DNA from: Conexibacter sp.
GTDB lineage: Bacteria > Actinomycetota > Thermoleophilia > Solirubrobacterales > Solirubrobacteraceae
Assembly: GCA_036009645.1 (NCBI GenBank)
Contig: DASYLH010000016.1
Span: forward strand, 2,165-66,164
Direction: 5' to 3'
Length of the DNA stretch: 64,000 bases
A model generated the notes under the pieces. The model did not search any database and had not been told where the DNA came from. It worked only from the letters and a program-made list of their open reading frames with translations. The position numbers and the translations under genes are program-made. Shown piece after piece: positions 20,587 to 38,733 of this stretch (positions are counted from its first letter, which is position 1; the number at the start of each line of letters is the position of its first letter).

Positions 20587-21444
20587 ATGGGAGCTTGCGC
20601 AAGCTGCACCGCCGAGGTGCATGAGGACGACGCGTTCTGCGGGGCATGTGGGGCGCCGCTGCGCCCACCGCCGCCGCAGGCACCTCCGCCTGAGCCCACT
20701 CCCGCCTCGACAGGGCCTCGGCGCGACTACGAGCGCAGCGTCGAGCACCTCGACCCGCTGGCCGCGCCGTACGCCGCGGCGGCGGCACGCCAGGCGATCT
20801 TCTACACCCTCGCCGCAGGCGTCCTCGGGCTGCTGGTGTTCCTGTTCGCTGGGACGGGCTCCGGCACCGGCACGGTCGTGGGCTTCCTCTGGATCGGCGC
20901 GTTCATCGCCTATCTGCTGACGCGCATTCCTGTCTCGCTCTCGGAGTGGAAGATGCTGATCGACGGGAGAGGGGAGCACGCCCAGGAGGTGTTCGGGCAC
21001 GTCGCGCACGTACTGCGCCGGCGGCAGGTCCCGGTCGACAGCATCAGGGTGCGACAGCTCTCTCAGCCTCAGCACCCGCGGCGCGACTACCTTCAGGTGC
21101 GCCACGGGATCCTGACCGGCTACGTGACCTGCTTCCCGTACGGCACCGACCTGTACATCGGCTGGACGCTGTGGTGGCGCTTCTCGCCGCTCCACTACGC
21201 ACTGATGATGGCGGGCCGGCGCTGGCAGATCCTCACCGGACGCGGGACCGAGCTGCACCTCCTCTACCGCTACGACGTGGCCAAGGCGATGCGCGAGGCG
21301 ATGCACGCCGCGACGGGGGAGGCGGTCGACGCCGCGCACGGGCTCCTGCCGCTGCAACCGCTGCCCGCCGACCTGCCCGTCGAGGTCGTGGAGGCCAAGC
21401 CACTGCTCGTCCCGGCGGATGCGCCGCCGCGAGGCGTTGCCTGA
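20587..21444 (+). CDS. Zinc-ribbon membrane protein
   Basis: N-terminal CASC..FCGACG, Pro-rich linker, two TM helices. Confidence 0.7.
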   Translation: MGACASCTAEVHEDDAFCGACGAPLRPPPPQAPPPEPTPASTGPRRDYERSVEHLDPLAAPYAAAAARQAIFYTLAAGVLGLLVFLFAGTGSGTGTVVGFLWIGAFIAYLLTRIPVSLSEWKMLIDGRGEHAQEVFGHVAHVLRRRQVPVDSIRVRQLSQPQHPRRDYLQVRHGILTGYVTCFPYGTDLYIGWTLWWRFSPLHYALMMAGRRWQILTGRGTELHLLYRYDVAKAMREAMHAATGEAVDAAHGLLPLQPLPADLPVEVVEAKPLLVPADAPPRGVA

Positions 21445-22235
21445 TGGACGCACGTGATAGCCACCTGACGTGCCCGGGATGCGGTCATGCGGCTCCCGCC
21501 GACAGGCGCTTCTGCTCCAGATGCGGTGCGCGGCTGTCCGCTCCGGAGCCGCCGGCCGCGCCGGTAGTGCCGCCGGCGTCTGAGCCCGAACCGGTGCCGC
21601 AGACGCAGCCGGAGCCGGCGCCCGCTGCGCAGCAGAAGCAGCAGCGTTGGGCGCTCGACACGCCCCCCGCGAACGAGAGCTGGTGGCGCAATCCGATCGT
21701 CGTCGTGGCAGCGGCCGTCTCCATTCTGTTCGGTGGCGGAGTCGCGAGCTGGCGCTTCTTCATCAGCACGGGCTCGGACATAGCTCCCGTGGTCAGGCTG
21801 CCCTCTGGGAGCGTGCCGGGTGCATCGACCACGAGCCCGCCGGTCGATGCGACGGAGCCACCCGTCGCAGACCCCGCGGACGAGGCCGCGACGGCGGCCG
21901 CGATCGGCAGGATCGTGCGACAGTCGGAGGCGGGCCGTCGCGCGCTGCGCCGGCTGGACTACGTCGCCGCGCTGCACAACCGGCGGCGGCTCGTGGCGGC
22001 GATGGACCGGCTCGACGTCCCTCCGCAGCCCGAGCAGCTGGCACGCGCGGCCGCGACGCTGCGGGCGGCGCTCGCTGCATCGGCACTGGCCGATGAGCGC
22101 CACATCTCCTGCGCGTGCGACGAGCGCCTCTCGCAGGACCTCAGAGCCCACGGGCTCAAGCACCGCTTCGCAGGCGAGTTCAACCCGTACGCGCGACGGT
22201 ATCTCGGGCATCCGGTGGATCCCGAGCGCATATGA
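21444..22235 (+). CDS. Zinc-ribbon single-pass membrane protein
   Basis: CPGCG..FCSRCG, Pro-rich linker, one TM helix, C-terminal CAC-containing domain. Confidence 0.7.
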   Translation: MDARDSHLTCPGCGHAAPADRRFCSRCGARLSAPEPPAAPVVPPASEPEPVPQTQPEPAPAAQQKQQRWALDTPPANESWWRNPIVVVAAAVSILFGGGVASWRFFISTGSDIAPVVRLPSGSVPGASTTSPPVDATEPPVADPADEAATAAAIGRIVRQSEAGRRALRRLDYVAALHNRRRLVAAMDRLDVPPQPEQLARAAATLRAALAASALADERHISCACDERLSQDLRAHGLKHRFAGEFNPYARRYLGHPVDPERI

Positions 22236-22990
22236 GGATTGCAGGCGCACGAACGGTCGCGAGCACGGCGGTGCTGTGCGCGGTGGCGGTACTGGGCGGT
22301 GCATGCGGTGGCGGGACGGTCGCCGCAAGCGTCGTGTCGTCGACGTCGCCGACCGCTCCAGTGCGCTCCATCCCCGCGACGCCGTCCCCGCATCGCCACG
22401 TCGCCCCGCCGGTCGAGAAGCCGGCCTTCCGCCACCGCTTCATCCCGATCACGGCGCAGCGGCGTCGCGAGACGTCGGCGTACGGGCAGCGCCACTACGG
22501 CCGCGCCGGCTGGACGATCGCACAGCCGCACGTGATCGTCGAGCACCTGACCGAGAACGATTCGATCGACGCGACCTTCAGCACGTTCGCGCCGGACGTG
22601 CCCGACGTCGAGCTGCACGAGCTGCCCGGCCTCTGCTCGCAGTTCGTGATCGCACGCAGCGGCGCGATCTATCAGTTCGCGCCGATCACGTTCATGTGCC
22701 GTCACACGGTCGGCCTGAACTGGACCGCGATCGGGATCGAGCACGTCGCGTATCGCGAGGACGACGTCTTCGCCCGCCGCGCCCAGCTCGACGCCTCCCT
22801 GCGCCTCACGCACTGGCTGCGCTGCCGCTATCGGATCCCGGTCCGCGACGTGATCGGCCACGCCGAGAGCCTCTCGTCGCCGTACCACCACGAGCGCATC
22901 GCCAGCCTGCGCACGCAGACGCACGCGGACTGGCAGCCGTCGCCGATGGGTCGCTACCGGGCGTTGCTGCGAGCGCGCGGCGGCTGCTGA
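22232..22990 (+). CDS. N-acetylmuramoyl-L-alanine amidase (Amidase_2), lipoprotein-like
   Basis: VIVEHLTE..CSQFVI..HTVGLNWTAIGIEH..VIGHAES; LGGAC lipobox-like. Confidence 0.85.
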   Translation: MRIAGARTVASTAVLCAVAVLGGACGGGTVAASVVSSTSPTAPVRSIPATPSPHRHVAPPVEKPAFRHRFIPITAQRRRETSAYGQRHYGRAGWTIAQPHVIVEHLTENDSIDATFSTFAPDVPDVELHELPGLCSQFVIARSGAIYQFAPITFMCRHTVGLNWTAIGIEHVAYREDDVFARRAQLDASLRLTHWLRCRYRIPVRDVIGHAESLSSPYHHERIASLRTQTHADWQPSPMGRYRALLRARGGC

Positions 22991-23157
22991 GCTTTGCGCC
23001 AGCGTCCGTTAACGACACGACCCGCCGCGGGGGCGGGATAACCGGCTGACAATCGGAGAACGGACTCTAGGAAGCGGCGGCGTGCCCGTGTACACAGCAT
23101 GCATTTGATCGAGTGAACCGGCGTTCTGCGCCGCAAAGGCATGGGATGCTCCCGCCC

Positions 23158-23688
23158 ATGACCCGTCGCCGCGCGCTGTGGATCCTCGGAATCGTGACGC
23201 TCGGCCTGTTCGCCGTGCTGCTCGCGCTCGACGGGTGGATGCAGGATGCGGGCAGCCATGGGATCGTCGCGTTCGAGGTCGCGTTCACGTCCGGCAAGGC
23301 GCAGGAGATCATCATCGCGTGGGGCTCGAAGGGGCACGACGCGGCGCAGCTGTCGCTGTGGATCGACTTCCTCTACCTGATCGCGTACGGCCTCTTCCTG
23401 TGGCTCGCGGTTCGCGCGCTCGGCGACGCGCTCCGCAACCGCGGCATGGACGGCTGGGCGCGGCCGGCAGCGACGATCTCGGTGCTGCCGCTGGTCATCG
23501 CCGGCGCCGATGCGGTCGAAGACATCTTCCTGCTGCTCGTGCTCGGCGGACACGCCAGCTCGATCGGCCCGCCGCTCGCCGGCAGCTTCGCGACGCTCAA
23601 GTTCGCCTGCCTCGCGGTCGTGGTCGTCTACCTGCTCGCAGGCCTGGTCGCACTCGCGCTCTCGCGCCGCAGCGCGCCTGCGCGATGA
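23158..23688 (+). CDS. Hypothetical membrane protein
   Basis: Four to five hydrophobic segments; SLWIDFLYLIAY..ADAVEDIFL. Confidence 0.75.
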   Translation: MTRRRALWILGIVTLGLFAVLLALDGWMQDAGSHGIVAFEVAFTSGKAQEIIIAWGSKGHDAAQLSLWIDFLYLIAYGLFLWLAVRALGDALRNRGMDGWARPAATISVLPLVIAGADAVEDIFLLLVLGGHASSIGPPLAGSFATLKFACLAVVVVYLLAGLVALALSRRSAPAR

Positions 23689-24539
23689 CCGGACCGCAGC
23701 GCTCCGAGATCTTCGCGCCCGGCCTGCTCGACGGGCAGGTCGCTCTGGTCACGGGCGGCGGGACCGGACTCGGCAAGGCGGCCGCGCACGAGCTGGCGCG
23801 TTGCGGAGCGTCGGTGGTGCTCGCCGGGCGCCGCGAGGAGGTGCTCGACGCGGCGGTTGTGGAGATCGGGCCGGCTGCGTCGACGGTCGTCGGCGACATC
23901 CGCGACGACGACTCGGCGACGGCGATCCTCGACACGGTGCTGGAGCGCCATCGCCGCCTCGACGTGCTCGTCAACAACGCGGGCGGCCAGTACTTCGTGC
24001 CGGCGGAGGCGATCGCGGCAAAGGGCTGGCAGGCGGTCTTCCGGCTGAACGTGGGCGGCACCACGCGCATGACGGAGCTGGTCGCCGAGCGGGTCATGAA
24101 GCCGGCGGGGCGGGGGACGATCCTCAACGTGACGCTCTCTCCGCACCACGGCCTCGCCGGGATGACGCACTCGAGCGCTGCGCGCGCCGCCGTCGAGGGG
24201 CTCACGCGCGCGTGGGCCTCGAAGTGGGCGGACGACGGCATCAGCGTGGTCGCGCTGGCTGCCGGCCACTTCGAGACGGAGGCGCTCGACAAGTACCCCG
24301 ACGTCGTGCGCGCCGGTGCGGCGCGGACGGTCCCGCTGCAGCGGCTCGGGCAGCCGATCGAGCACGCCTGGCTCGTCGCGCTGCTCGCCTCGCCGCTCGG
24401 GCGTTCCTTCAGCGGCTCGGTCGTGACGCTCGACGGCGCGCGCGACAACTGGTTCGGCCCGTGGCCGCCGCCGACGCTGGCGGACGCGGAGGGCGTCGTG
24501 CCGACGGAGGAGCGGCGCCCGGCGCCGCCCTCCGCCTGA
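23685..24539 (+). CDS. SDR-family oxidoreductase (2,4-dienoyl-CoA reductase-like)
   Basis: VTGGGTGLGKA, LVNNAGGQ, HSSAARAAV. Confidence 0.88.
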   Translation: MTGPQRSEIFAPGLLDGQVALVTGGGTGLGKAAAHELARCGASVVLAGRREEVLDAAVVEIGPAASTVVGDIRDDDSATAILDTVLERHRRLDVLVNNAGGQYFVPAEAIAAKGWQAVFRLNVGGTTRMTELVAERVMKPAGRGTILNVTLSPHHGLAGMTHSSAARAAVEGLTRAWASKWADDGISVVALAAGHFETEALDKYPDVVRAGAARTVPLQRLGQPIEHAWLVALLASPLGRSFSGSVVTLDGARDNWFGPWPPPTLADAEGVVPTEERRPAPPSA

Positions 24540-24554
24540 CGCGGTCGAGCTGCC

Positions 24555-24848
24555 TTAGCTGGCCGCGGCGGCGATCGCCGCGTTGACCTCGGCGACGAAC
24601 TGCTCCGCCTCGGTCTGCCGTTCCAGCGGGACCCACACGGCGAGCTGGAGGCGGTCGAAGTCTGTCCGGACCCGCTCCTCCTTCTTGCCGAACAGGCCGA
24701 GCGCCTTGCCCTTGTCGTGGCGCACGACTCTCCCGGGCGTCAGCTCCGAGAGCGGGAAGCGGGCCTCCTCGCCGCCCCAACGGAGGGCGGCGAGATGGTG
24801 GTCCTCCAGCACGAGCGCGCGGTCGTCACAGCCTTCGAGCTTTCTCAT
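24555..24848 (-). CDS. Hypothetical protein
   Basis: 97-aa ORF with protein-like composition, co-oriented downstream of the thiolase. Confidence 0.65.
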   Translation of the reverse strand: MRKLEGCDDRALVLEDHHLAALRWGGEEARFPLSELTPGRVVRHDKGKALGLFGKKEERVRTDFDRLQLAVWVPLERQTEAEQFVAEVNAAIAAAAS

Positions 24849-24881
24849 GGACGGACCCTAACCCGCGCGCGGGACGCCTTC

Positions 24882-26060
24882 TCAGCCGCGCCCCACCAGC
24901 ATCGCGATGCCCTGGCCGCCGCCGATGCAGAGCGTCACGAGGCCGAGCTCGTGGTCGCCCCGCTCCATCTCGGCGAGCAGCTTGACGGTGATCGCGGCGC
25001 CGGTCGCGGCTACGGGGTGACCGAGCGCGATCGCGCCGCCGTTGGGGTTGACCTTCGCCTCGTCGAGGCCGAGCTCGTCGATCACGGCGAGCGACTGTGC
25101 GGCGAACGCCTCGTTGAGCTCGATCACGCCGATCTCGTCGAGCGAGCGGCCGGCGCGCTCGAGCACCTTGCGCGTGGCGGGCACGGGGCCGATCCCCATG
25201 ATCTGCGGGTCGACACCGCACGACGCGTAGGCGAGGATCCGGCCGAGCACGGGGGCGCCGCGCTTCTCCGCCTCTGCGGCCGACATCAGCACGACCGCCG
25301 CGCCGGCGTCGTTGAGGCCCGAGGCGTTGCCGGCGGTGACGGTGCCGTCGCCTCTGAAGGCGGGGCGCAGCTTGCCCATCGCTGCCGCGTCGATCTCCGC
25401 GCGGATGTGCTCATCCTGCTCGAAGGCGACCGTGTCGCGCTTGACCTTGATGTCCACGGGGACGATCTGGTCCTTGAAGCGACCCTCCGCGCGGGCCTGC
25501 GCCGCACGGCGGTGCGACTCGACCGCGAACGCGTCCTGACGCTCACGCGAGATGTCGCCGCGCTCGGCGAGGCGCTCGGCCGTGATGCCCATGTGGTCCT
25601 TGTCGAACGGATCGGTGAGCGCACCAACGACCGCGTCCACGAGCGGCGCGTCGCCCATGCGCGCACCCCAGCGCGCGCCCGGCATCCAGTACTGGCCGCG
25701 GCTCATCGACTCCGCGCCGCCCGCGAGCGCGATCTCCGTCTCGCCGGTCTGGATCGTCTGGGCAGCCGAGACAATCGCCTGCACACCCGTACCGCACAGA
25801 CGGTTGACGGTGTACGCGGGCGTCTCCTTCGGGATCCCGGACTTCATGCCGACGACGCGCGCCATGTACATGTCGCCCGGCTCGGTGTGGATCACGTTGC
25901 CGAAGACAACGTGGCCCACGTCCGCGGCGTCGATCCGCGCACGCTCGATCGCTGCCTTCGACACGATCGCGCCGAGGTCGCTGGGGGCGGTGTCCTTGAG
26001 ACTGCGGCCGTACGAGCCGATGGCGGTACGGGCCGCGCCGGCGATCACGACGTCGGTCAT
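24882..26060 (-). CDS. bktB: Acetyl-CoA C-acyltransferase (beta-ketothiolase, BktB-like)
   Basis: TVNRLCGTG, NASGLNDAG, ELNEAFA, GGAIALGHPVAATG, LCIGGGQG. Confidence 0.9.
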   Translation of the reverse strand: MTDVVIAGAARTAIGSYGRSLKDTAPSDLGAIVSKAAIERARIDAADVGHVVFGNVIHTEPGDMYMARVVGMKSGIPKETPAYTVNRLCGTGVQAIVSAAQTIQTGETEIALAGGAESMSRGQYWMPGARWGARMGDAPLVDAVVGALTDPFDKDHMGITAERLAERGDISRERQDAFAVESHRRAAQARAEGRFKDQIVPVDIKVKRDTVAFEQDEHIRAEIDAAAMGKLRPAFRGDGTVTAGNASGLNDAGAAVVLMSAAEAEKRGAPVLGRILAYASCGVDPQIMGIGPVPATRKVLERAGRSLDEIGVIELNEAFAAQSLAVIDELGLDEAKVNPNGGAIALGHPVAATGAAITVKLLAEMERGDHELGLVTLCIGGGQGIAMLVGRG

Positions 26061-26162
26061 GCGTGTGTCGAGCTCCTCGGTGGCGGGCTGCTGGTGTGCG
26101 GCGGCGCCGAACGCTAACCCACGGCGGCAAGATGCGTGACGCTCCTCCTACAGTGGAGGGCG

Positions 26163-26666
26163 ATGAGCGACGAGCACCGCCGTCCATCCCAGGAGCGCGA
26201 GCTGGCCCCGGCCGAGCGCCTGCTGCGCGAGCGCACCGCGGACCTGCCGGGGATCGGCAAGCCGCTGACCGAGCGCGCGCGGATCGCGCAGAGGTCGGTC
26301 GAGTCCTACCTGCTGGGCGCGAACAACCCGCCGCGCTGGATGGAGCGGGTGGCGGAGATCGACCGTGCGCTGAAGCGGGAGCGGCGGATGCTGCGGACGG
26401 AGTGGCAGACGCTGCGGGCGCGGTTTGGGGCGGACGGGGACGGGTTCGCTTCGGCGTGGCATGCGTTCGCGGCCGCGCGCGGTGTCAGTCGCGAGTACCG
26501 CGAGCTGAACGAGCTGATCCGCGCGCACAATGAGTGGTACCCGGTCGAGCGGAACCTGCCGGTCAACCCGCGCACGGGCGAGTGGGTGACGGTTGGCGGC
26601 CGCTCGTTCCTGCGGCCGGTGGTCGGCACGGCGTGGGTGCTGCGGGAGTTCCCGGCAGAGGTCTGA
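26163..26666 (+). CDS. Hypothetical protein
   Basis: PPRWMERVAEI..HNEWYPVERNLPVNPRTG; compact ORF with plausible start. Confidence 0.7.
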   Translation: MSDEHRRPSQERELAPAERLLRERTADLPGIGKPLTERARIAQRSVESYLLGANNPPRWMERVAEIDRALKRERRMLRTEWQTLRARFGADGDGFASAWHAFAAARGVSREYRELNELIRAHNEWYPVERNLPVNPRTGEWVTVGGRSFLRPVVGTAWVLREFPAEV

Positions 26667-26679
26667 CCGGGACCGCGCC

Positions 26680-26970
26680 TCAGGACTTGCAGGCGGTCCC
26701 GTCGTGGTCGGAGTCGAGGCCGTAGTGGTCGGTGCCGACGACGCGGAACGGCCCGCGGACGTAGTAGGGGCCGTTACCGCTCCCGCCGGCGCAGTCGTAG
26801 TCGCTGACGTTGGGACGCAGGCAGCGGCCGCTGTAGTTGCGGTCGCAGTGGCGCTTGTTGGCGACGGTGGCGGTGGGGCCTGTGGGCGGCGCGGCGGTGG
26901 CGACGGTTGCGGCAGTTACGCCCACCGCGAGCACGGCGACGAGCAGAATCGGCAGCGACAGCTTGCGCAC
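26680..26970 (-). CDS. Small secreted Cys-rich protein with Excalibur-like Ca-binding motif
   Basis: Signal peptide; CDRNYSGRCL..DYDCAGG..DHYGLDSDHDGTAC. Confidence 0.75.
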   Translation of the reverse strand: MRKLSLPILLVAVLAVGVTAATVATAAPPTGPTATVANKRHCDRNYSGRCLRPNVSDYDCAGGSGNGPYYVRGPFRVVGTDHYGLDSDHDGTACKS

Positions 26971-27129
26971 GGGACGGTCTCCTCGGGGGAGCGGGCACGA
27001 CCGGCGCCCCATGCGCCAACCCGCGGCAGCGACTCTACACCGGAAAGTAGGTTTAGAGTCGGACACCTCGGGTCGCCACGCCCCGCTCCCCGTCGAGACC
27101 GCGCCCCGAGTATCATCTGCCTCCAGCCT

Positions 27130-27200
27130 GCGGGCGAGGTGTTGTGGTTGCACAGGAGCCTTCCAAGCTTCTAGGGCGGGTTCGATTCCCGTCGCCCGCT
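27130..27200 (+). tRNA. tRNA-Gly (anticodon TCC)
   Basis: Acceptor stem GCGGGCG/CGCCCGC, anticodon arm GGAGC-CTTCCAA-GCTTC, T-loop TTCGATT; CCA not encoded. Confidence 0.95.
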
Positions 27201-27216
27201 CTGGCACATAGCACCA

Positions 27217-27290
27217 CGGGGAGTGGCGCAGTCTGGTAGCGCACCCGGCTGGGGGCCGGGCGGTCGCAGGTTCAAATCCTGTCTCCCCGA
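27217..27290 (+). tRNA. tRNA-Pro (anticodon GGG)
   Basis: Acceptor stem CGGGGAG/CTCCCCG, anticodon arm CCCGG-CTGGGGG-CCGGG, T-loop TTCAAAT. Confidence 0.95.
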
Positions 27291-27431
27291 CTACCAAGGT
27301 CTCTTTTGACCTTATGGCGTCAAGACCACGACCGCCGAGCAGCAGCACCTCCATTTAGGCGTCGGCGATCCTCGACACCGTGTCAAGCGCGAGCGTCCGC
27401 GCGCCAAGCCCTGGGTGCTAGCGTGGACCGC

Positions 27432-29214: not shown

Positions 29215-30321
29215 TCAGCTGCCAGCGTGCGGTGGCGTGGCGGGTAGTTGCACCGTGACGCAGAGCCCGCCGGCGGCGCGGGGGGTGAGGGTGAGGGTTC
29301 CGTCGTGTGCTTGGGTGATGCTTTTGACGATTGCCAGGCCGAGGCCGACGCCTGCGTGGTCGGTGCGTATGCGTTTGGAGCCGCGCTGAAACGGCTCGAC
29401 AAGCGTGGAAGCCAACTGTGGGGTGAGCGTCGCGCCGGTGTTCTCGACGGTGAGCACCACACCCTTGGGGTGAACGCTGGTCGTGACCCACACGGTGCCC
29501 TGTTCAGGCAGGTTGTGGACGATCGCGTTGTGCAAGAGGTTCGTTGTCATCTGCAGCAGGAGGGCGGGTGAGCCGATGGTGGGGGTCAGTTCGCCGGAGG
29601 TCTCGATGGTGGCGCCGCGTTCCTCTGCGAGGGGGAGGAGCGTTTCCGTGGCTTCTTCGGCTATGAGTGACAGGTCGGCGTGTTCTCGGACGAAGGACCG
29701 CTGGTCGGCGCGGCTGAGCAGGAGCAACGCTTCGGTGAGGTCGATCGCTCGGGTGTTGACGAAGTGGAGGCGCTCGACAAGTTCGTCGTTGCCGCGGCTT
29801 TGATCGTTGCGGGCCACGTCGAGGAGCGTCTGCGTGATCGCCAGCGGGGTGCGCAGCTCATGGGAGGCATTGGCTGCGAATCGCTGCTGTTCGGCGACGC
29901 GTGCCTCGAGTCGCGCAAGCATGGTGTCGAAGGCGTCGGCGAGCTCGCGGAACTCGTCGTTGCGGCCTTCCAACGCGATCCGGTGGGAGAGCGATCCGGT
30001 CGCGGCGACGCGTGTGGCGTCGGAGATCCGTTCCAAGGGAGCGAGCATCCGTCCGGCCAGAAGCCACCCCCCGACGAGACCGAACACCAGGAGGAAGGCC
30101 AGCACCACGACTGCCGCCGTGCCGAAGACGCCTGGGCCAAAGTTGGTGGGGTTGAAGACGCGCGGGAAGTTGGAGAACCTGGGAACGAGGCTGCTGGCGG
30201 GATAGTCTCGCAAGAGGAACACCCAGACGGCCGCGAGCATCAGGGCGCCAGCGATCATGAGGAAGCCGGCGTAGCTGAGGGTGAGCTTGAGGCGGACGCT
30301 CAAGCCCGGGGCCCTATCCAC
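29215..30321 (-). CDS. vanS: VanS sensor histidine kinase (actinobacterial type)
   Basis: GTG start; LSVRLKLTLSYAGF, HAMP, FAANASHELRTPLAI, NLLHNAIVHN, GVGLGLAI; adjacent to vanR. Confidence 0.9.
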   Translation of the reverse strand: MDRAPGLSVRLKLTLSYAGFLMIAGALMLAAVWVFLLRDYPASSLVPRFSNFPRVFNPTNFGPGVFGTAAVVVLAFLLVFGLVGGWLLAGRMLAPLERISDATRVAATGSLSHRIALEGRNDEFRELADAFDTMLARLEARVAEQQRFAANASHELRTPLAITQTLLDVARNDQSRGNDELVERLHFVNTRAIDLTEALLLLSRADQRSFVREHADLSLIAEEATETLLPLAEERGATIETSGELTPTIGSPALLLQMTTNLLHNAIVHNLPEQGTVWVTTSVHPKGVVLTVENTGATLTPQLASTLVEPFQRGSKRIRTDHAGVGLGLAIVKSITQAHDGTLTLTPRAAGGLCVTVQLPATPPHAGS

Positions 30322-31000
30322 CGTCCCCTCCGGTGCCGGATGCTGTGTCGATGCGGTACCCGGCGCCGGCCACGGTGGCGATGATCCATGGTTCACCGAG
30401 GCGTCTGCGCAGTGCCGAGACGGTGATGCGCACGGCGTTGGTGAACGGGTTTGCGTTCTCGTCCCACGCCCGATTCAGTAACTCTTCGGCGCTGACGACA
30501 CCCCCTTCGGCAGCGACGAGAACTTCGAGCACTGCGAACTGCTTCCGCGTCAGCGCGACGTAGCGGCCGTCGCGGTAGACCTCTCGGCGGAACGGATCCA
30601 GCCGCAGGCCTGCGATCTCTTGCACAGGCGGCCGGTTGTGGGCGCGCCGGCGGTCGAGCGCCCTGAGACGGAGCACCAGCTCCTGGAGTTCGAAGGGCTT
30701 CGTGAGGTAGTCGTCGGCGCCGAGCCCGAACCCGGAGGCCTTGTCGTCGAGCCGGTCGGCGGCGGTCAGCATGAGGATCGGCATGCCGCTGCCGGAGGCG
30801 ACGATGTGTTTGGCGATCTCGTCACCGGAGGGTCCGGGGATGTCTCGGTCGAGGACGGCGATGTCGTAGGCGTTGACGCTCAGCAGCTCCAGAGCGGTGT
30901 CGCCGTCACCGGCGATGTCTGCCGCGATCGCTTCCAGGCGTAGGCCATCGCGGATGGCTTCGGCCATGTAGGGCTCATCCTCGACGATCAAGACGCGCAT
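30314..31000 (-). CDS. vanR: VanR response regulator
   Basis: MRVLIVEDEPYMAEAIRDGLRLEAIAADIAGDG..LDRDIPGPSGDEIA..WDENANPFTNAVRITVSALRRRLG; TAGCAT -10 six nt before ATG suggests a leaderless mRNA. Confidence 0.92.
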   Translation of the reverse strand: MRVLIVEDEPYMAEAIRDGLRLEAIAADIAGDGDTALELLSVNAYDIAVLDRDIPGPSGDEIAKHIVASGSGMPILMLTAADRLDDKASGFGLGADDYLTKPFELQELVLRLRALDRRRAHNRPPVQEIAGLRLDPFRREVYRDGRYVALTRKQFAVLEVLVAAEGGVVSAEELLNRAWDENANPFTNAVRITVSALRRRLGEPWIIATVAGAGYRIDTASGTGGDGG

Positions 31001-31022
31001 GCTCCGATGCTACGAGCTGGCG

Positions 31023-31061
31023 CATATCGTCGGCGTATCGAAAACCACATACGTGCTGGCA
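31023..31061 (+). promoter_or_regulatory. van promoter element (putative VanR box), copy 1
   Basis: CATATCGTCGGCGTATCGAAAACCATACGTGCTGGCAAC; near-identical copy upstream of vanH. Confidence 0.75.
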
Positions 31062-31163
31062 ACGCCACGCTGCCTTGACTGGCGGCGTGACCTGCAGCGA
31101 ACCGGCACGAACGGCACCCCGCCGTACCCGATCGACCATCGTCGTCGGCTTCGCCGGTGCGGC

Positions 31164-32228
31164 ATGAGCAAGACGCCGCAGGCTCGCCGCGGGACCGCAA
31201 CCCTGTACGGCCGTCGCCGTCGCCGCGTGCTGCTCGGCGCGGTACTGGCCCTCGCCCTCGCTGCCACGGCGTTCGCGGCTCCCCACCACCTGCTCAACGG
31301 CGAGGAGCGCAGCTACCTGTCGACGGACGGCTGGCCGCTTCACGGACAAGGGGCGTACGTGCTCGACGACGGCCGGCCGGCGGGGAGCCCGCACCAGCAG
31401 CCGGTCCCGATCGCCAGCGTGGCAAAGGTGATGACCGCGTACATCGTGCTCAAGCACCACCCGCTGCGGGCGGACGACAGCGGCCCGCGATTCGTGGTCG
31501 GTCAGGACGATGTCGTGGACACCGAGGCGAGGCGCCGCGACGGCCAGTCGGTTGTCGATGTCCGCGCCGGCGAGCAGCTCACCGAGCGGGACGCCCTCAT
31601 GGCGATCCTGTTGCCGTCCGCGAACAACGTCGCGGTGCTCGTCGCCCGTCAGGTCTCCGGCAGCATCGCTTCCTTCGTGGCGGAGATGAACGACACGGCG
31701 CGCGCGTTGGGAATGTCCCACACGACCTACACCGATCCAAGCGGATACGACGTCGGCACGGTCTCGACAGCCCTCGATCAGCTCCGTCTGGCGCGGGTGG
31801 TGGCCAACGACGAGACGCTGGCGGCCATGATGGCCACCCGCACCTACTGGCTGCCGGTGGCCGGTGAGGTGACCAACACCAACGCCCTGCTCGGCCATGA
31901 CGGGTTCGTCGGCATGAAGACCGGCTCACACGAGGCGGCCGGCGGCTGCTTGATGTTCCGGGTCGTGTGGCCCACCGAGAGCGGCAGCCGATCCCTGATC
32001 GGCGTGGTGCTCGGGCAGCGAGGAGACAACCTGATCACCGCGGGACTGGGTGCGGCCGAGCAGCTGGTCGACCGCCTGGCGCCGGACGCGGCACCCACTG
32101 GAGCATCCAGCATGCCCGCTGCAGCCGGCCGCCTCAGCGTGGCCCAGCCGGGGCTCGCGACACCACCCGGAACATATCGTCCGCATATCGAAAACCACAT
32201 ACGCGCTGGCAACACCCCGCTCCCTTGA
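31164..32228 (+). CDS. D-alanyl-D-alanine carboxypeptidase (peptidase S11)
   Basis: SxxK (IASVAK), SxN (PSANN), KTG (GMKTG); N-terminal membrane anchor/signal. Confidence 0.88.
   Translation: MSKTPQARRGTATLYGRRRRRVLLGAVLALALAATAFAAPHHLLNGEERSYLSTDGWPLHGQGAYVLDDGRPAGSPHQQPVPIASVAKVMTAYIVLKHHPLRADDSGPRFVVGQDDVVDTEARRRDGQSVVDVRAGEQLTERDALMAILLPSANNVAVLVARQVSGSIASFVAEMNDTARALGMSHTTYTDPSGYDVGTVSTALDQLRLARVVANDETLAAMMATRTYWLPVAGEVTNTNALLGHDGFVGMKTGSHEAAGGCLMFRVVWPTESGSRSLIGVVLGQRGDNLITAGLGAAEQLVDRLAPDAAPTGASSMPAAAGRLSVAQPGLATPPGTYRPHIENHIRAGNTPLP
32173..32213 (+). promoter_or_regulatory. van promoter element (putative VanR box), copy 2
   Basis: CATATCGTCCGCATATCGAAAACCACATACGCGCTGGCAAC, ending ~24 bp upstream of the vanH start. 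Confidence 0.78.
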
Positions 32229-32236
32229 ATGGAGAC

Positions 32237-33262
32237 ATGGTCCGCAGCGAACCAGCACGAACCGCGGGCCGCCGCACCCGATCGCTGGCATCCGTCCCGA
32301 CGATGGGGATCACGATCTATGGGTGCGGACAGGACGAGGCCGCCGTGTTCCGAGAGATGGCGCAAGGCCTTGGCGTCGCGCCGACGATCACCGAGGCAGC
32401 GGTGTCTGAAGGCAACGTCGGACTGGCATTCGGGAACCGATGCATCAGCGTCGGTCACAAGACGCAAGTCACGAATGCCACGCTTCTTGCGCTCAGCGAA
32501 GCCGGCGTGACGTATATCTCCACACGAAGCGTCGGATGCAACCACGTCGACGTGGACTACGCGGAGAGCGTGGGCATCTCCGTAGAGACCGTCGCCTACT
32601 CGCCCGACAGCGTGGCGGACTACACGCTGATGCTGATGCTGATGGCGGTGCGGAATGCCAAATCCGTCATCAGGCGTGCAGACGTTCATGACTACCGATT
32701 GAGCAATGTACGCGGGAAAGAGCTGCGCGACCTGACCGTCGGGGTGATCGGAACGGGACGCATCGGCAGCGCGGTCATGGACCGGCTGCGAGGGTTTGGC
32801 TGCCGAACGCTCGCCTATGACACTCGGCCCAGGACCTCGGCCGACTACGTCACTCTCGGTGCATTGCTCGAGCGGAGCGACATCGTGACGCTCCATGCGC
32901 CACTCACCGCGGATACGCACCATCTCCTCGATCGCCGCCGTATCGAGCGGATGAAGCACAGCGCGGTGATCGTCAACACTGGACGCGGCGCGCTTCTCGA
33001 TACCGAGGCGCTTGTCTCAGCCTTGGAAAGCGGCAGATTGGGCGGCGCGGCGCTGGACGTCCTCGAAGGAGAGGATGGGATCTTCTACGCCGACTGCAGC
33101 GACAAGCCCATCGAAAGCCAACTGCTGCTGCGGTTGCACAAGCTGTCGAACGTGCTGATCAGTCCGCACAGCGCCTACTACACAGACCACGCCCTGATGG
33201 ACACCGTGCAGAACTCCCTTACCAACTGCCTGAAGTTTGCGAGCCGCGATCACCATGAATAA
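32237..33262 (+). CDS. vanH: VanH D-lactate dehydrogenase
   Basis: GGAG RBS; GITIYGCGQDEA, YISTRSVGCNH, YSPDSVADYTLMLMLMAVR, GTGRIG, ISPHSAYYT. Confidence 0.95.
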   Translation: MVRSEPARTAGRRTRSLASVPTMGITIYGCGQDEAAVFREMAQGLGVAPTITEAAVSEGNVGLAFGNRCISVGHKTQVTNATLLALSEAGVTYISTRSVGCNHVDVDYAESVGISVETVAYSPDSVADYTLMLMLMAVRNAKSVIRRADVHDYRLSNVRGKELRDLTVGVIGTGRIGSAVMDRLRGFGCRTLAYDTRPRTSADYVTLGALLERSDIVTLHAPLTADTHHLLDRRRIERMKHSAVIVNTGRGALLDTEALVSALESGRLGGAALDVLEGEDGIFYADCSDKPIESQLLLRLHKLSNVLISPHSAYYTDHALMDTVQNSLTNCLKFASRDHHE

Positions 33263-34295
33263 GTTGAAGGTTGGGATCGTCTTCGGTGGCTGCTCCGAAG
33301 AGCATCCGATCTCCGTCAAGTCGGCGCAAGAGGTCGCAAGACACCTCGATATCGCCAAGTACGAACCGTTCTACGTCGGGATCACGACGAGCGGTGCGTG
33401 GAAGCTTTGTGACGGCCCTGACGCAAATTGGGAAGACGGAAGTTGCCGTCCGGCCGTCCTGTCACCGGACAGAAGCGTCCACGGACTGCTCGTCCTGGAA
33501 GAGGGAAGATACGAGACGATCAGCCTCGACGTAGTGTTGCCCATCCTGCACGGCAAGCTCGGCGAAGACGGCGCGATGCAGGGTTTGTTGGAGCTCTCCG
33601 GCATTCCCTATGCAGGCTGCGACATCCAAAGCTCCGCCCTGTGCATGGACAAGTCCCTGACGTACATGGTCGCCACAGCCGCGGGAATCGCTACGCCGAG
33701 TTTCTGGACCGTCGCGGCGAACGAGAGCATCGATCCCGACCAGCTCACCTATCCCGTCTTCGTGAAGCCGGCCCGCTCGGGGTCGTCCTTCGGCGTCACC
33801 AAGGTTTCCCACAGAGAAGCGCTCCAGAGCGCGGTGCAGACCGCACGGCAATACGACTCGAAGGTCGTGATCGAGGAAGCTGTCACCGGCAGCGAGGTCG
33901 GATGTGCCCTCCTGGGGAACGACCTGGACCTGTCTGCCGGCGAGGTCGATCAGATCGCCTTGTCTGATGGCTTTTTCAGGATCCATCAGGAACGCGAGCC
34001 CGAACAGGGCTCCGACAACGCGACGGTGATCGTCCCCGCGAACATCTCGGCGGACTCACGGTCGCTGGTGCAGGAGACCGCCAAGGCCATCTATCGCGCC
34101 TTGGGATGCAGCGGGCTCTCGCGGGTGGACATGTTCCTCACCGAGGATGGACAGGTCGTGCTCAACGAGGTCAACACGTTGCCCGGGATGACGTCATACA
34201 GCCGCTACCCGAGGATGATGGCCGCGGCAGGACTGCCCTTTGCGGACGTGATCGACCGGATCGTGGCGTTGACGCTGACGGGGACGCGCCGATGA
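33255..34295 (+). CDS. vanA: D-alanine--D-lactate ligase (VanA type)
   Basis: GGCSEEHPISVKSA, KPARSGSSFGV, GFFRIHQE (His typical of D-Ala-D-Lac ligases), NEVNTLPGMTSYSRYPRM. Confidence 0.95.
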   Translation: MNKLKVGIVFGGCSEEHPISVKSAQEVARHLDIAKYEPFYVGITTSGAWKLCDGPDANWEDGSCRPAVLSPDRSVHGLLVLEEGRYETISLDVVLPILHGKLGEDGAMQGLLELSGIPYAGCDIQSSALCMDKSLTYMVATAAGIATPSFWTVAANESIDPDQLTYPVFVKPARSGSSFGVTKVSHREALQSAVQTARQYDSKVVIEEAVTGSEVGCALLGNDLDLSAGEVDQIALSDGFFRIHQEREPEQGSDNATVIVPANISADSRSLVQETAKAIYRALGCSGLSRVDMFLTEDGQVVLNEVNTLPGMTSYSRYPRMMAAAGLPFADVIDRIVALTLTGTRR

Positions 34296-34616
34296 AGGAC
34301 GACTTCGCCTTCGTCGACGAGCGCGTTCCCGGGTCACAGCCGGGGCAGCACCGTCGACCTGACGCTCTATCGATTGGCCACCGGTGAGCTTGCTTCGATG
34401 GGCGGTGATTACGACCTGATGGATCCGATCTCCCACCGTGGGGCGAAGGACATCACGCAGGTCGAAGCGAGAAACCGCGAGGACCTTTGCTCGGTCATGG
34501 AGGCTTGCGGCTTCAGCTCGTACGAGTGCGAGTGGTGGCACTACACGCTGAAGGCCGAGCCCTATCCCGACACCTACTTCGATTTCCCCATCACGCATGC
34601 GCTTCTCGACATCTGA
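34292..34616 (+). pseudogene. vanX: vanX D,D-dipeptidase with ~100-codon internal deletion and frameshift
   Basis: 5' MKDDFAFVDERVPG joins directly, in another frame, to GHSRGSTVDLTL..EWWHYTL..YFDFPI at ~34332. Confidence 0.88.
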
Positions 34617-35949
34617 GCTGACGACCCATCTGGGCGGTGAGCTGGTTGGGCCCGATGTCAGCATCGAAGGGGCGAGCATCGACTCGCGGACGATCCGGCC
34701 GGGGCAGCTCTACGCCCCCATCGTGGCCGAGCGCGACGGCCACGCCTTCATCCCGGCAGCGCTCGAGGCGGGCGCGCCGGCCTACCTGACCGCGCAGGAG
34801 CCGGTGGGCGGGACGGCCATCCGTGTTCGCGACACCGCCGCCGCACTGTTGAACCTCGGGGGATTCGCCCGCAGTCGGGTCGGCGGCGCGATCGGCATCA
34901 CAGGGTCGGTGGGCAAGACCACCACCAAGGACCTCCTGGCCGGCTGTCTGGCGTCGACGTTCCGCACCGCCGCGAGCGAGCGTTCCTTCAACAACGAGCT
35001 GGGCCTCCCTCTGACGCTGCTCAACGCGTCGGACGCTGCGCGGTGGGTGGTCCTCGAGATGGGAGTCCGGCGTGTGGGGGACATCGAGCGGCTGGCCGAG
35101 GTCGCACGTCCCGACGTAGGCATCGTGACCAGCGTCGATATGGCGCACGTGGAGTACCTCGGTGACCTCAACGGCGTGGCCCGCGCCAAAGGGGAGCTCG
35201 TGGCGGCCTTGCCGGCATCGGGTCTCGCGGTGTTGAACTTCGACGACCCCCGGGTCCGAGAGATGGCGTCGCTCAGCGCGTGTCCCGTGCTGGGGTATGC
35301 GGTGGGCGCCGACGCCGAAGTGCGGGCGGACGACGTCACGCTCGACCGGGACCTGCGCGCACGGTTCCGCCTGTCGTCGCCGTGGGGGCAGACCGAGGTC
35401 CGGCTGGCGTTGCACGGCGTGCAGCACGTCGCCAACGCGCTCGCCGCCGCGACGGTCGCGCTGTGGTGTGGGGTCCCCATCGAGACCGTCGCCGCGGCAC
35501 TAACGGTGAGCCAGGGCTCGCCCTGGCGCATGGAGGTTCATCACGTGCCCGGCGGCCCCGTCCTGGTGGTCGACTGTTTCAACGCGATCCCCGCGTCGGC
35601 CGAGGCGGCCGTGCGCTCGCTGGCCGCGTTGCCGGGCAAACGCAAGCTGGCAGTCCTCGGGCTGATGGCCGAGCTGGGGGACCAGAGCGAGTCCGAGCAT
35701 CGCCGGATCGCCCTCGTGGCGGAGGAACTCGGGATCGAGGTGGTGGGATACAAGACCGGGCTCTATGGCAAGGCGCACGTGACGGGCGTCGACGAGGCTG
35801 TCGCCTTGTTGCGCACGATGGGCTCGGGTGACGCAGCGCTTGTCAAGGGCAGCCGCGTGGCGCGACTCGAAGACGTGGTGCACGCCTATGGGAAGGCCGA
35901 GGGCGCGCCGTCGCTCAGCTCCGGCGCCGGGGCGGCGGCGGGTGCGTAA
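34597..35949 (+). CDS. murF: MurF (UDP-MurNAc-tripeptide--dipeptide ligase) within the van operon
   Basis: GITGSVGKTTTKD, SFNNELGLPLTL, VLEMG, LGLMAELG, LVKGSR. Confidence 0.9.
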   Translation: MRFSTSELTTHLGGELVGPDVSIEGASIDSRTIRPGQLYAPIVAERDGHAFIPAALEAGAPAYLTAQEPVGGTAIRVRDTAAALLNLGGFARSRVGGAIGITGSVGKTTTKDLLAGCLASTFRTAASERSFNNELGLPLTLLNASDAARWVVLEMGVRRVGDIERLAEVARPDVGIVTSVDMAHVEYLGDLNGVARAKGELVAALPASGLAVLNFDDPRVREMASLSACPVLGYAVGADAEVRADDVTLDRDLRARFRLSSPWGQTEVRLALHGVQHVANALAAATVALWCGVPIETVAAALTVSQGSPWRMEVHHVPGGPVLVVDCFNAIPASAEAAVRSLAALPGKRKLAVLGLMAELGDQSESEHRRIALVAEELGIEVVGYKTGLYGKAHVTGVDEAVALLRTMGSGDAALVKGSRVARLEDVVHAYGKAEGAPSLSSGAGAAAGA

Positions 35950-38733
35950 CTACGTCAGCTGCGTTGCCCAGAACGCTTCAAACCGTGCGATCCGTCGGAG
36001 CCATATCCGACGGCCAGTCTCGTTTTGCTGCAACGCGAGCGCTGCCTGCAGGAGCGGATGCACCGCCGGGGCGTAGTCATCAGGCGCTCCCTCATACAGG
36101 GATGACCATGCGAATTGGCTGAGGGGCTCGTCGCCCAGCTCGCGAATCCGTGTGAGCAGGTTTTGAACGATGTGCTCGCGCAGCCTGAGGTCCCCGGTCC
36201 GCGCGGCGGTCTCCATCAGCGAGCGCACGGCGCCGTACTGCACCCAGCTGTAGTCGTCTCCGATCGCTTGCAACAGCGCCGCCGTGTTCGCTTCCGTCGG
36301 CCAGGCACCGAGCACATGGACGACGCGCCAGCGAATTGCGCGCGCGGTCGAGTCGGCAGAGGGATGGGCCGCGTAGAGGGCGCGCAGTTGTGCCGCGCGC
36401 TCGGGATCATGCGCGAAGCGGCGCGCAACGCTGGCCATCGTCCAACCGATCAGTGAGTCGCTGCTCGCAATCAGCGCCGCCTCCTGTTCGCTGAGCGGCG
36501 TGGGCGGCATGCGGCAGAAGCACGCGCGCCACTGCTCGAACCACTCGGGGCCGCTGGGGGCAACGCGGACGACGTCGATCAGCGCTGCAAGTGACGGAGC
36601 CGACGTCAACTGCGCCGCCACATCGCCACTGAAGCGTTCGAGATGTTGAATCGTCACCCCGCGCGTGCCGTCGACGCGATCGAAGCGCTTTTCCGCGATG
36701 ACAGCGAGCAACGCCATCCGGAGTGGTGCGCTTGCGGCCGGCGACCCGTCGTGCTCAGCCGCGATCATCGCGGCGATCGTGCCGCCCCAGTTCCAGTCGT
36801 AGACCGCCCGCAGAAATGCGTCGCGCTCGTCCTCGCGCGTGAGCTGCTCAAGCGTCAGCCCGAGCACGTCAAACGACGCGGCATCAAAGGTCATCGCGTC
36901 GAACACCACCGGCGTCCACTGACGCGCACAAGCGGCAAGGTGGCGGGCCGCCAGGTAGTCGTGCTCAAGCTGGTGATGAAACGCCAGATCCTCTTCGCCG
37001 AGTACCACGCCGGCGTCCTGCAACATGGCGAACACGTCGTCTCCAGCGACGTCAGCGATCGCGGTAGCAGGAAAGCTGCGCCGGCGCTGGAGATACACCT
37101 CGAACGCTGCGTGCGCGAGCGCGTCGAGCTGATCGTCGCTGAGGTCAAGCTGCACGGCAAAGAAATCCTGCAGTGCCGCGGCGCGTGAGATGAGTGCAAG
37201 GTTGCCGCCGCGGATTGCGCGGTTGAGGAAGAACGGAATGCGCAGCAGCTCGACCGCGGCACCCAGGTCAGCTGCAGCGTCCTCGCCGAGCTGCTCGGTC
37301 AGGACCCGCTTCACCTCTGCTACCTCGAGCGGCTCCAGGCGCATAGTCGTCCAGCCGCTCTCGTCGTAAAACTCGCCAAGTGACCGGTCGGTCACCAGAG
37401 TGCGCACGTGGGGGCGCGTGCGCATGTACTCATCCAAGAGCGTGAGGATGCGTCGGCCGACGTCTGCAAACGAGACCTCGTTCAAGCCGTCGACGAACAG
37501 CAGCACTGGTCGGCGTACGGCAATCGCATCGAGCAGCTTGACGCCGATGCGTTGCACGGACGCGCGCAGCAGCGCGTCGAGTGATGGCAGCAGCTCCGCT
37601 CCCGAAGGGTCCTCCGCCAGCCGGTTGCTGTAGGCCGGCTTCCACAACTTCAGGTCGATCAAGACCGGGAACGGCTCCAGCGGGCTTGATGAGGCCTTCA
37701 CTGCCTGGTGCAGGATCGAGCTCTTCCCGACGCCCGCGCCGCCTACGAGCACCGCGCCGTGGCGCTGCATGACCATCGCGAGTGCGTCGTTGCGGGTCAG
37801 CTGTCCGGTGCCGGTCCGTACCACGGAGGCATACGCATCGCTCGGCACCGCGTAGGACGTGTCGAGGCGACGACGCAGTTCATCGAGCGACTCGAGTTCC
37901 TCCGCGGTGGCGACATTGCCGACGGACGGTGTCGCGTCGATCAACGCGAGCGTCGCTGCGACTGCTGCATCACACGCGGCAAGCTTCCAGTCGTCACGCG
38001 TTGCCTGGTTGTCCTTGCCGTCCATCCAATCCGAGATCCCGCGCAGCGCGACAAAGCTCAGCGGGAGGCCATCGTCGGCTGCCTCCAACGCGGCGTGGGC
38101 GACCCCGACGGTCTCCATGTCGACGGCCAACGCCTTGTCGTACTCCGTGACGATCCTGGAGACCTCTGACGCGGCGGGATCGGCGAGCAGCTTGTCGCCA
38201 CAGACCAACTCACCCAACTTCAGTTGCGCTGCTCCCGGCCGCTCGACTTGGCAGCGAGCGCGCCAGTTGGGACGCAGCTCATCGAGTTGGCGAGCGGTCG
38301 TGCTCAGCCGTGGTGAGATCGATTGCCAGCGGATGTAGCGCGGTACACGGGTGCCGCCGGCTACGAGCTTCTGCAGCTCGTAGTAGTGCAACAGCTCGCT
38401 GACGACGACGTCGCCGAGTGCAACGTCATCGCGTGGCCGTTTGCCCTCACCCCAGATGCCACCACCGCAGTCAGCCAGCACCAGACAGCGCGGCCGCCAC
38501 ACGTGCAGCATGCGCGTCGCGAACGCCTGTGCGGGCAAGTGGGAGCGCTCCGGTGTTTGTCCCTCCACCACCAGATGCGTCCCGCCATCTGCTGCGGGCA
38601 GCTCGGCGACCGTCCAGTACCAGCCGTCCGCCTCGACCGACTTCGCGTCATCGAGCGCTGAGCAGAACAACTCATGCGCCTCATCGACGACTGTAATCAC
38701 GGCGAACGAACAGTTCCTGGCCATCTGGAGCAC
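35950..38733 (-). CDS. Nucleoside phosphorylase (PNP/MTAN-like) + NACHT/STAND NTPase + helical-repeat protein
   Basis: N-term LGDVVVS..VCGDKLL..VDMETVGV..LRGISD; Walker A GGAGVGKS; Walker B LFVDGLNE; LRIPFFL; FHHQLEHDYLAA; HEAT-like C-terminus. Start may be ATG 38724. Confidence 0.82.
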   Translation of the reverse strand: MLQMARNCSFAVITVVDEAHELFCSALDDAKSVEADGWYWTVAELPAADGGTHLVVEGQTPERSHLPAQAFATRMLHVWRPRCLVLADCGGGIWGEGKRPRDDVALGDVVVSELLHYYELQKLVAGGTRVPRYIRWQSISPRLSTTARQLDELRPNWRARCQVERPGAAQLKLGELVCGDKLLADPAASEVSRIVTEYDKALAVDMETVGVAHAALEAADDGLPLSFVALRGISDWMDGKDNQATRDDWKLAACDAAVAATLALIDATPSVGNVATAEELESLDELRRRLDTSYAVPSDAYASVVRTGTGQLTRNDALAMVMQRHGAVLVGGAGVGKSSILHQAVKASSSPLEPFPVLIDLKLWKPAYSNRLAEDPSGAELLPSLDALLRASVQRIGVKLLDAIAVRRPVLLFVDGLNEVSFADVGRRILTLLDEYMRTRPHVRTLVTDRSLGEFYDESGWTTMRLEPLEVAEVKRVLTEQLGEDAAADLGAAVELLRIPFFLNRAIRGGNLALISRAAALQDFFAVQLDLSDDQLDALAHAAFEVYLQRRRSFPATAIADVAGDDVFAMLQDAGVVLGEEDLAFHHQLEHDYLAARHLAACARQWTPVVFDAMTFDAASFDVLGLTLEQLTREDERDAFLRAVYDWNWGGTIAAMIAAEHDGSPAASAPLRMALLAVIAEKRFDRVDGTRGVTIQHLERFSGDVAAQLTSAPSLAALIDVVRVAPSGPEWFEQWRACFCRMPPTPLSEQEAALIASSDSLIGWTMASVARRFAHDPERAAQLRALYAAHPSADSTARAIRWRVVHVLGAWPTEANTAALLQAIGDDYSWVQYGAVRSLMETAARTGDLRLREHIVQNLLTRIRELGDEPLSQFAWSSLYEGAPDDYAPAVHPLLQAALALQQNETGRRIWLRRIARFEAFWATQLT

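Follow-up and report, generated by a model that had tools for sequence, protein, structure and literature searches.

Within a 64,000-nucleotide stretch of DNA from Conexibacter sp. (the window, to which coordinates refer unless another locus is named), we identified a glycopeptide-resistance (van) gene cluster at 29215-35949. In this cluster, vanS and vanR lie on the minus strand, and an S11-family carboxypeptidase gene, vanH, a D-alanyl-D-lactate (D-Ala-D-Lac) ligase gene, a broken vanX and murF run divergently from them on the plus strand. With a probability of about 60%, we interpret it as a VanRS-inducible D-Ala-D-Lac resistance cluster of a lineage that circulates in Solirubrobacterales, acquired into a variable chromosomal region and now in reductive decay, with its D-lactate (D-Lac) arm crippled and its carboxypeptidase arm intact. 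The cluster is a decaying variant of a known system that is common in its order, not a new system, and its main points of interest are a recurrent VanRS-linked S11 family, a portable promoter/leader module and documented erosion of van clusters.

Genes were identified by listing open reading frames (ORFs) and scanning them with NCBIfam and Pfam family models, and were compared with 80 loci that carry the closest ligases (GTDB species representatives) and 78 further loci with S11 relatives, designated here by L numbers. The assignments were as follows.

29215-30303, minus strand: vanS, sensor histidine kinase with HAMP, HisKA and HATPase_c domains (NCBIfam VanS-O, 544 bits; Pfam; Joint Genome Institute (JGI) gene call)
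30314-31000, minus strand: vanR, OmpR-family response regulator (NCBIfam VanR-O, 455 bits)
31164-32228, plus strand (long ORF from 30999): predicted S11 serine DD-carboxypeptidase (Pfam Peptidase_S11, PF00768, 101 bits)
32237-33262, plus strand: vanH, D-lactate dehydrogenase (VanH-AOV, 556 bits)
33255-34295, plus strand: D-Ala-D-Lac ligase (equivalog NF000206, 611 bits against a cut-off of 550)
34292-34616, plus strand: vanX pseudogene (alignment to intact relatives; Pfam remnant)
34597-35949, plus strand: cluster-borne murF (TIGR01143, 334 bits against a cut-off of 289)

The best models for the two regulators, VanS-O and VanR-O, were matched below their type cut-offs of 720 and 505 bits, and the vanR sequence is mostly 88-95% identical to vanR genes that adjoin vanHAX across many genera. 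For vanH, the generic model vanH_gen was borderline (539.5 against 540) with a full-length alignment. MurF contains a GSVGKTT P-loop and the Mur_ligase_M and Mur_ligase_C domains, and its N-terminal Mur_ligase domain scored just under the cut-off (19.9 against 21). Among the components of a vanHAX-type operon, VanH, a D-Ala-D-Lac ligase and adjoining VanR/VanS are thus present, and a functional VanX is missing. Every cut-off of the type-specific NCBIfam models VanA, B, D, F, I, M, O and Sc was missed, which places the cluster in none of the named van types. An earlier sequence-only reading of this DNA had described this same divergent arrangement and recognised no named type; family scans recovered each of the genes that it named and support its assignment to an actinobacterial-type vanRS/vanHA(X)/murF cluster.

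Deletion within vanX and probable erosion of the cluster

The vanX start codon, an ATG at 34292 that overlaps the ligase stop, opens 14 codons (MKDDFAFVDERVPG) before the frame changes; the C-terminal 88 codons (HSRGSTVDL...FDFPITH) are read in a different frame and extend to 34616. When aligned with six intact relatives, the gene proved to have an internal deletion of exactly 302 bp, plus a frameshift, so the earlier description of vanX as deleted was accurate. The Peptidase_M15 Pfam profile matched vanX at positions 127-197 of 199 only. The sequence CGGG occurs as microhomology at both edges of the lost piece, and the junction lies at 34330-34333.

This truncated gene was found again in other assemblies. 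Two JGI metagenome contigs from samples 3300035667 and 3300041409, which match the window at 99.99% over 21 kb and 100% over 4 kb, both carry it and encode an identical ligase protein (counted from its ATG start), and the 21-kb contig is collinear with the window through both cluster borders. A Logan contig from a public soil run covers 34157-34757 (601 nucleotides) with 0 differences. Contigs from other soil runs, 90-97% identical to the window, lose their match exactly at 34330/34333 and run into an intact vanX. Because the same junction recurs in independent assemblies and the 90-97% identical contigs continue into intact vanX, the deletion can be assigned to this strain itself, and its sister strains have kept vanX. 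The junction had no exact match among 185,579 GTDB representative genomes.

The murF ATG of the window lies 17 nucleotides inside the end of the vanX reading frame. In the closest relatives, L002 and L008, murF starts within the region of the vanX stop or next to it. A ribosome that starts at the window's vanX ATG would terminate about 210 nucleotides before murF, and we saw no ribosome-binding site of the GGAGG type ahead of the murF ATG, which suggests that murF has probably lost its translational coupling to vanX and that MurF translation may be reduced.

At columns conserved in at least 95% of homologues, vanS has one deviation (145 columns), vanR one, vanH one (124 columns) and the ligase two, no more than typical homologues show. 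MurF has four (nine homologues), under the median of its homologues; for the S11 protein the test is weak, with two usable homologues. Given this lack of excess changes in the other genes, the loss of vanX may be recent, or the remaining genes may still be under selection. At residue 244 of the ligase ORF (LS-D-GFF), in the omega loop, the window has aspartate where at least 95% of 84 homologues have histidine. We take this site to be the Tyr238 position of the Enterococcus faecium enzyme, not His244, and to lie six residues before the His244 equivalent; the ligase keeps that equivalent within a FRIHQE motif. The E. faecium ligase sequence used as a reference agrees with known values in its length and His244 position.

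A more decayed sister copy occurs in the metagenome-assembled genome (MAG) SZAS-16 (L225, the same MAG as L087), which belongs to the same genus-level group and has a thiolase 90% identical to that of the window. At 7816-8896 of this locus, vanH is frameshifted near residue 125 and joined to a C-terminal fragment of vanA, residues 247-349; the locus has no vanX or murF, and its vanS, vanR and S11 genes are intact.

In another related MAG (L006), two promoter modules of the kind described below lie about 740 bp apart at 6065-7006 with no S11 gene between them. After its vanX, at 9712-9900, an N-terminal remnant of murF is joined to the C-terminal end of a PhyH-like gene. This rearrangement reads as further evidence of frequent deletions in the cluster family.

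Promoter modules and the S11 carboxypeptidase

Upstream of both the S11 gene and vanH, we found copies of a direct repeat with the features of a promoter and leader.

31012-31134, plus strand: van promoter/leader module, copy 1 (123-nucleotide direct repeat, 80% identical to copy 2)
31087-31167, plus strand: 26-codon leader ORF, which opens at the module GTG and whose TGA overlaps the S11 ATG (ATGA)
32162-32284, plus strand: van promoter/leader module, copy 2 (overlaps the 3' end of the S11 gene and includes the vanH start codon at 32237)

In the module, tandem ATATCG-N5-(A/G)TATCG repeats lie 11 bp apart, and beyond them conservation extends across a GGAGG ribosome-binding site and the start codon; the consensus of 126 copies is CATATCGTCGGCATATCGAAAACCGCATACGTGCTGGCAAC..CTTGACTGGAGGCATGACC. 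One to four copies per locus were present in 71 of the 80 ligase loci, upstream of vanH, beside vanR and near the start of divergent murF genes, and in the loci examined the module also precedes PhyH-like, VanY and LytR_C genes that follow murF. The window has only the two copies before S11 and vanH. We consider the tandem ATATCG repeats a candidate VanR site. The vanH gene uses the module start (32237) as its own start codon. L223 and L224 share the leader-ORF layout before S11; most other relatives have a module start that is in frame with S11. Scanning for the sigma-70 consensus gave no promoter, as would be expected of high-GC promoters that depend on an activator.

The apparently conserved N terminus of the long S11 ORF is explained by its first 55 codons, which are promoter module DNA. 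We rejected those codons as protein-coding, and the real S11 start is probably the ATG at 31164. From there the N terminus (MSKTPQARRGTATLYGRRRRRVLLGAVLALALAATAFAAP) looks like a signal peptide or membrane anchor. The protein scored 101 bits with PF00768 against a cut-off of 27.6, its motifs SVAK, SAN and KTG (SxxK, SxN and KTG) aligned to those of PDB 4k91, and its closest solved relatives are DacC, PBP7 and K15-type low-molecular-weight penicillin-binding proteins (PBPs). These features identify it, at the level of sequence, as a class C low-molecular-weight PBP, a serine DD-carboxypeptidase. It is no orthologue of VanY-D, whose model it matched with 32 bits against a cut-off of 625.

Nearly all S11 homologues of at least about 55% identity adjoin a divergent two-component pair, in most cases a close vanS-vanR pair (VanR 87-95% identical), and those beside a close vanRS pair also sit behind the conserved module of about 120 nucleotides. 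In four loci from the Jatrophihabitans group and unclassified Actinomycetota (L233, L234, L237 and L238), S11 stands beside a distant pair (VanR about 52%); one contig (L235) begins just upstream of the S11 gene, and another (L236) holds the 3' part of S11 only. Streptomyces homologues, at 40-45% identity, have no van neighbours. Six loci have vanSR-S11 without vanHAX within 3-7 kb: Nitrolancea (L230), Gryllotalpicola ginsengisoli DSM 22003 (L231), L232, L239, L240 and L253.

We found no description of a VanRS-linked S11 family in the literature searched, and it is apparently unreported. Tentatively, and at somewhat less than even odds, we propose that VanRS-controlled S11 carboxypeptidases form a distinct, unnamed accessory resistance family in environmental Actinomycetota and at least one Chloroflexota locus. 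Such enzymes could act alone, as vanSR-S11 triads that confer a VanY-like but beta-lactam-sensitive tolerance of glycopeptides. The module of about 120 nucleotides would then be a portable cassette that recruits S11, murF, PhyH-like, LytR_C and VanY genes, and the vanHAX arm would be shed while S11 is kept.

Relatives, origin and host

The sequence-only reading had regarded the composition of the cluster as unusual. We found the complete gene order with an intact vanX in three further genomes at species level; another four loci, partial or without murF, agree with it as far as they reach.

vanSR divergent from S11-vanH-vanA-vanX-murF, complete, vanX intact: L008/L222 (Solirubrobacteraceae), L224 (Thermoleophilia), L228 (Solirubrobacteraceae)
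Same order, vanS beyond the contig end: L002
Same order over the extent of the locus: L022, L236
Same order up to vanX, no murF afterwards: L226 (Conexibacter sp.)
Without the S11 gene: Conexibacter stalactiti (L007), Patulibacter (L049), two Acidimicrobiaceae (L043, L044)
Accessory genes after murF: L224 12149-13610; L007 11021-11716; L002 5562-7243; L222 12666-13481; L228 5615-6430

Nor is a murF-bearing set new to the order: a 2021 survey of Actinobacteria reported vanRSHAXY in Solirubrobacterales, sometimes with murF (PMC8698665). That survey counted M15B carboxypeptidases only and mentioned the PBP-type VanY-D only for elements of Eggerthellales and Coriobacteriales (PMC8698665). The cluster of L224 contains both an S11 gene and an M15B VanY, which indicates that the S11 gene is an addition to VanY and not simply a substitute for it, as had been supposed.

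In these relatives, the cluster extends past murF with a PhyH-like dioxygenase, an M15B VanY and a LytR_C-domain protein, each behind its own promoter module; among these genes, the PhyH-like one recurs as a putative VanR regulon member. Conexibacter stalactiti KCTC 39840, which has no S11 gene, shows vanSR divergent from vanHAX-murF-vanY. The window lacks these PhyH-like, M15 VanY and LytR_C genes.

In a neighbour-joining tree of the ligases, which has no bootstrap support and is indicative only, the window groups with L224, L226, L049, L001, L007, L008, L228, L002 and L006. This clade consists mostly of Solirubrobacterales clusters with the vanX-murF arrangement and stands apart from the Streptomyces, Micromonosporales and Pseudonocardiales groups, whose murF, where present, is divergent and 40-45% identical. 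Consistent with this grouping, the window's murF is 78-93% identical to murF genes after vanX in Solirubrobacterales and Acidimicrobiaceae clusters and only 40-45% identical to the divergent murF of Streptomyces-type clusters.

Several MAGs labelled Conexibacter sp. have a thiolase 96% identical to the one at 24882-26060, and nucleotide alignments (blastn) showed 13 such relatives to be collinear with the window over about 13 kb (approximately 14000-27290). This identity and collinearity mark the host as a Conexibacter-like soil bacterium of the order Solirubrobacterales, class Thermoleophilia. Collinearity ends at the 3' end of the second of two tRNA genes, where a variable region with the van cluster begins.

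27130-27201, plus strand: tRNA-Gly(TCC) (ARAGORN, Rfam)
27217-27291, plus strand: tRNA-Pro(GGG) (ARAGORN, Rfam)

The tRNA pair (27130-27291) is 92-97% conserved in relatives and is a hot spot: gene content beyond it differs in 13 of 13 close relatives, and no integrase lies nearby. To the right of tRNA-Pro, a RibD_C-domain gene and a methyltransferase gene are common to some relatives, and everything from vanS onwards is unshared. GC content of the van segment is 66.6% compared with about 72% in the flanks, and GC at third codon positions is 78-88% in van genes compared with 93-95% in flanking genes; because both lie below the flanks, the segment looks foreign.

We found no integrase or transposase among the ORFs scanned or the JGI-called genes, and a search for att-like direct repeats, both of the tRNA-Pro 3' end and around the cluster, yielded only short repeats at chance level. 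No plasmid in PLSDB covers more than 38% of the cluster. An alkylsulfatase gene to the right of the cluster, used as a probe for resumed synteny, had a best match of 79% and none in the closest relatives. An Rfam scan detected the two tRNAs only and no known leader RNA. We found no vanJ, vanK, M15 vanY, second vanX or biosynthetic genes in the 64 kb, the remaining ORFs of which were not scanned exhaustively.

The sequence-only reading had proposed horizontal acquisition of a Streptomyces-type cluster by a non-producer from Thermoleophilia. The host assignment agrees with our thiolase and synteny results, and no producer genes are in view, nor any vanJ, vanK or biosynthetic genes, as that reading had also noted. 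Acquisition itself fits the foreign-looking composition and the variable region, but the Streptomyces-type label does not fit the ligase clade.

Several neighbouring genes were also noted. The C terminus of murF is native, and its stop is directly abutted by that of a convergent gene for a 927-amino-acid protein (35950-38733, minus strand) of low GC content (66%). The N terminus of this protein is nucleoside-phosphorylase-like (PNP_UDP_1; PADLOC 'PN-superfamily effector', E = 3e-8) and is accompanied by a Walker-A motif (GGAGVGKSS) and C-terminal HEAT repeats, a STAND/NLR-like build typical of anti-phage defence candidates. An L,D-transpeptidase gene (YkuD domain) at 57655-58431 (minus strand) lies 22 kb from the cluster, with no evidence of a link to van. 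L,D-transpeptidases use tetrapeptide stems made by DD-carboxypeptidases. Near the window end, at 60941-62551 (minus strand), is a gene for a 536-amino-acid ATPase with AAA_14 and DUF4143 domains, of a family frequent in mobile and defence contexts.

Proposed function, alternatives and known systems

In the mechanism that we propose, a glycopeptide would be sensed by VanS, leading to phosphorylation of VanR, which would bind the tandem ATATCG repeats of both modules and switch on S11 and vanH-vanA-(vanX)-murF. VanH and the ligase would make D-Ala-D-Lac, which the dedicated MurF would join to UDP-MurNAc-tripeptide, and the exported S11 enzyme would act like VanY and VanY-D, cutting pentapeptide stems that end in D-Ala down to tetrapeptides. 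With vanX destroyed, D-Ala-D-Ala made by the host would no longer be removed. Because D-Ala-D-Ala would persist and murF coupling is probably lost, the D-Lac arm would be crippled or only partly effective, and residual protection would come mainly from the S11 arm. Such decay would eventually leave only a vanSR-S11 triad, as other genomes have.

Several points weigh against this reading. No RNA-sequencing runs that contain the region were found. The view is limited to 64 kb, and the host ddl and any vanX copies elsewhere lie outside it. With a defective host Ddl, such as VanD enterococci have, the cluster could do without vanX and would be fully functional. Intact vanH, vanA and murF are equally compatible with continued function. 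S11 could also have a different role, since D-Ala-D-Lac may be a further substrate of serine DD-peptidases. The VanR binding site of actinomycetes has not been mapped experimentally (PMC5036315), so the ATATCG repeats are no more than a candidate. Sequence alone decides neither for decay nor for a still-functional cluster.

The main alternative, which we consider rather unlikely, is that the cluster is still fully effective. The loss of VanX would be compensated by S11 removal of D-Ala-ended stems together with a D-Lac-preferring MurF, or by a weak or inactive host Ddl as in VanD-type enterococci. Consistent with this idea, all genes but vanX are intact with normal conservation, the deletion allele is present in several soil data sets, and S11 sits directly upstream of vanH behind its own module, like vanY-D in the VanD operon. 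However, VanX is needed for high-level resistance in the systems studied, murF has probably lost its translational coupling, and relatives show further decay of the D-Lac arm; the host ddl is not in view.

A second alternative is that the genes form a VanRS-controlled regulon for cell-wall remodelling (carboxypeptidase, Mur ligase and D-Lac pathway) that answers envelope stress in non-producers and is not primarily concerned with resistance. The 2021 survey suggested such a role for van-like genes in general and found them to be far commoner in Actinobacteria than glycopeptide producers (PMC8698665). The diversity of accessory genes under the same module (PhyH-like, LytR_C, VanY and S11) would also fit. 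Against it, the output of VanH, the ligase and VanX is very specific, with glycopeptide evasion as its only known benefit, and VanR and VanS are close homologues of glycopeptide-responsive pairs; we regard this explanation as improbable. It is scarcely credible that the vanX deletion, or the junction between murF and the 927-amino-acid gene, is an artefact of assembly or binning that hides an intact vanX: although intact-vanX contigs from the same kinds of sample break exactly at the junction, at 90-97% identity they represent other strains, the junction is identical in three independent assemblies (two JGI, one Logan, the last with 0 differences in 601 nucleotides), and the JGI contig follows the window over 21 kb at 99.99% identity, both cluster borders included, so we rejected an assembly artefact as the origin of the deletion.

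The van reservoir in abundant, rarely cultured soil Thermoleophilia includes an architecture that current resistance-gene models would call only partly; the S11 gene matches no van-specific model. The promoter/leader module offers a simple sequence marker for predicting members of VanR regulons across Actinomycetota. The broken vanX and the more decayed sister copy indicate that van clusters erode in non-producers, and metagenome counts of vanA and vanH, read as functional resistance, may therefore be overestimates.

Among known systems, the surveyed actinobacterial vanRS-vanHAX clusters with murF share with the window the divergent vanSR, the vanH-vanA-vanX operon, murF, a non-producer host and the bacterial order; the window differs in having S11 between vanR and vanH, a deleted vanX and no M15 VanY (PMC8698665). 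VanO of Rhodococcus equi (Gudeta et al. 2014, as summarised in PMC8698665) is a high-GC system with vanSR on the opposite strand and supplied the best VanR and VanS models. However, the window misses the VanO cut-offs (ligase 609 of 750 bits, VanR 455 of 505, VanS 544 of 720), and VanO, as outlined in that summary, has vanHOX followed by orf2 and murG, not murF, and no S11 gene (PMC8698665).

The window resembles VanD in having a PBP-type carboxypeptidase gene immediately upstream of vanH and in that VanX activity is absent or unnecessary. The VanD operon of E. faecium has the order vanR-D, vanS-D, vanY-D, vanH-D, vanD, vanX-D, and VanX-D is dispensable because the host Ddl is inactive. By contrast, the regulators of the window are divergent, not co-directional, murF is present, its S11 protein is not a VanY-D orthologue (32 of 625 bits) and its ligase is not VanD (520 of 700 bits). 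VanY-D is a PBP-type DD-carboxypeptidase (Reynolds et al. 2001, as cited in PMC8698665). The position of S11 before vanH parallels a clinical operon without orthology, which points to more than one recruitment of PBP-type carboxypeptidases into van regulons. The six vanSR-S11 triads follow the same logic as vanRS-vanY triads such as that of VanYn of Nonomuraea, in which resistance relies on a carboxypeptidase only. The two differ in their enzymes, a serine S11 PBP as opposed to the zinc M15B peptidase of vanRS-vanY, and the S11 enzyme would be expected to be sensitive to beta-lactams.

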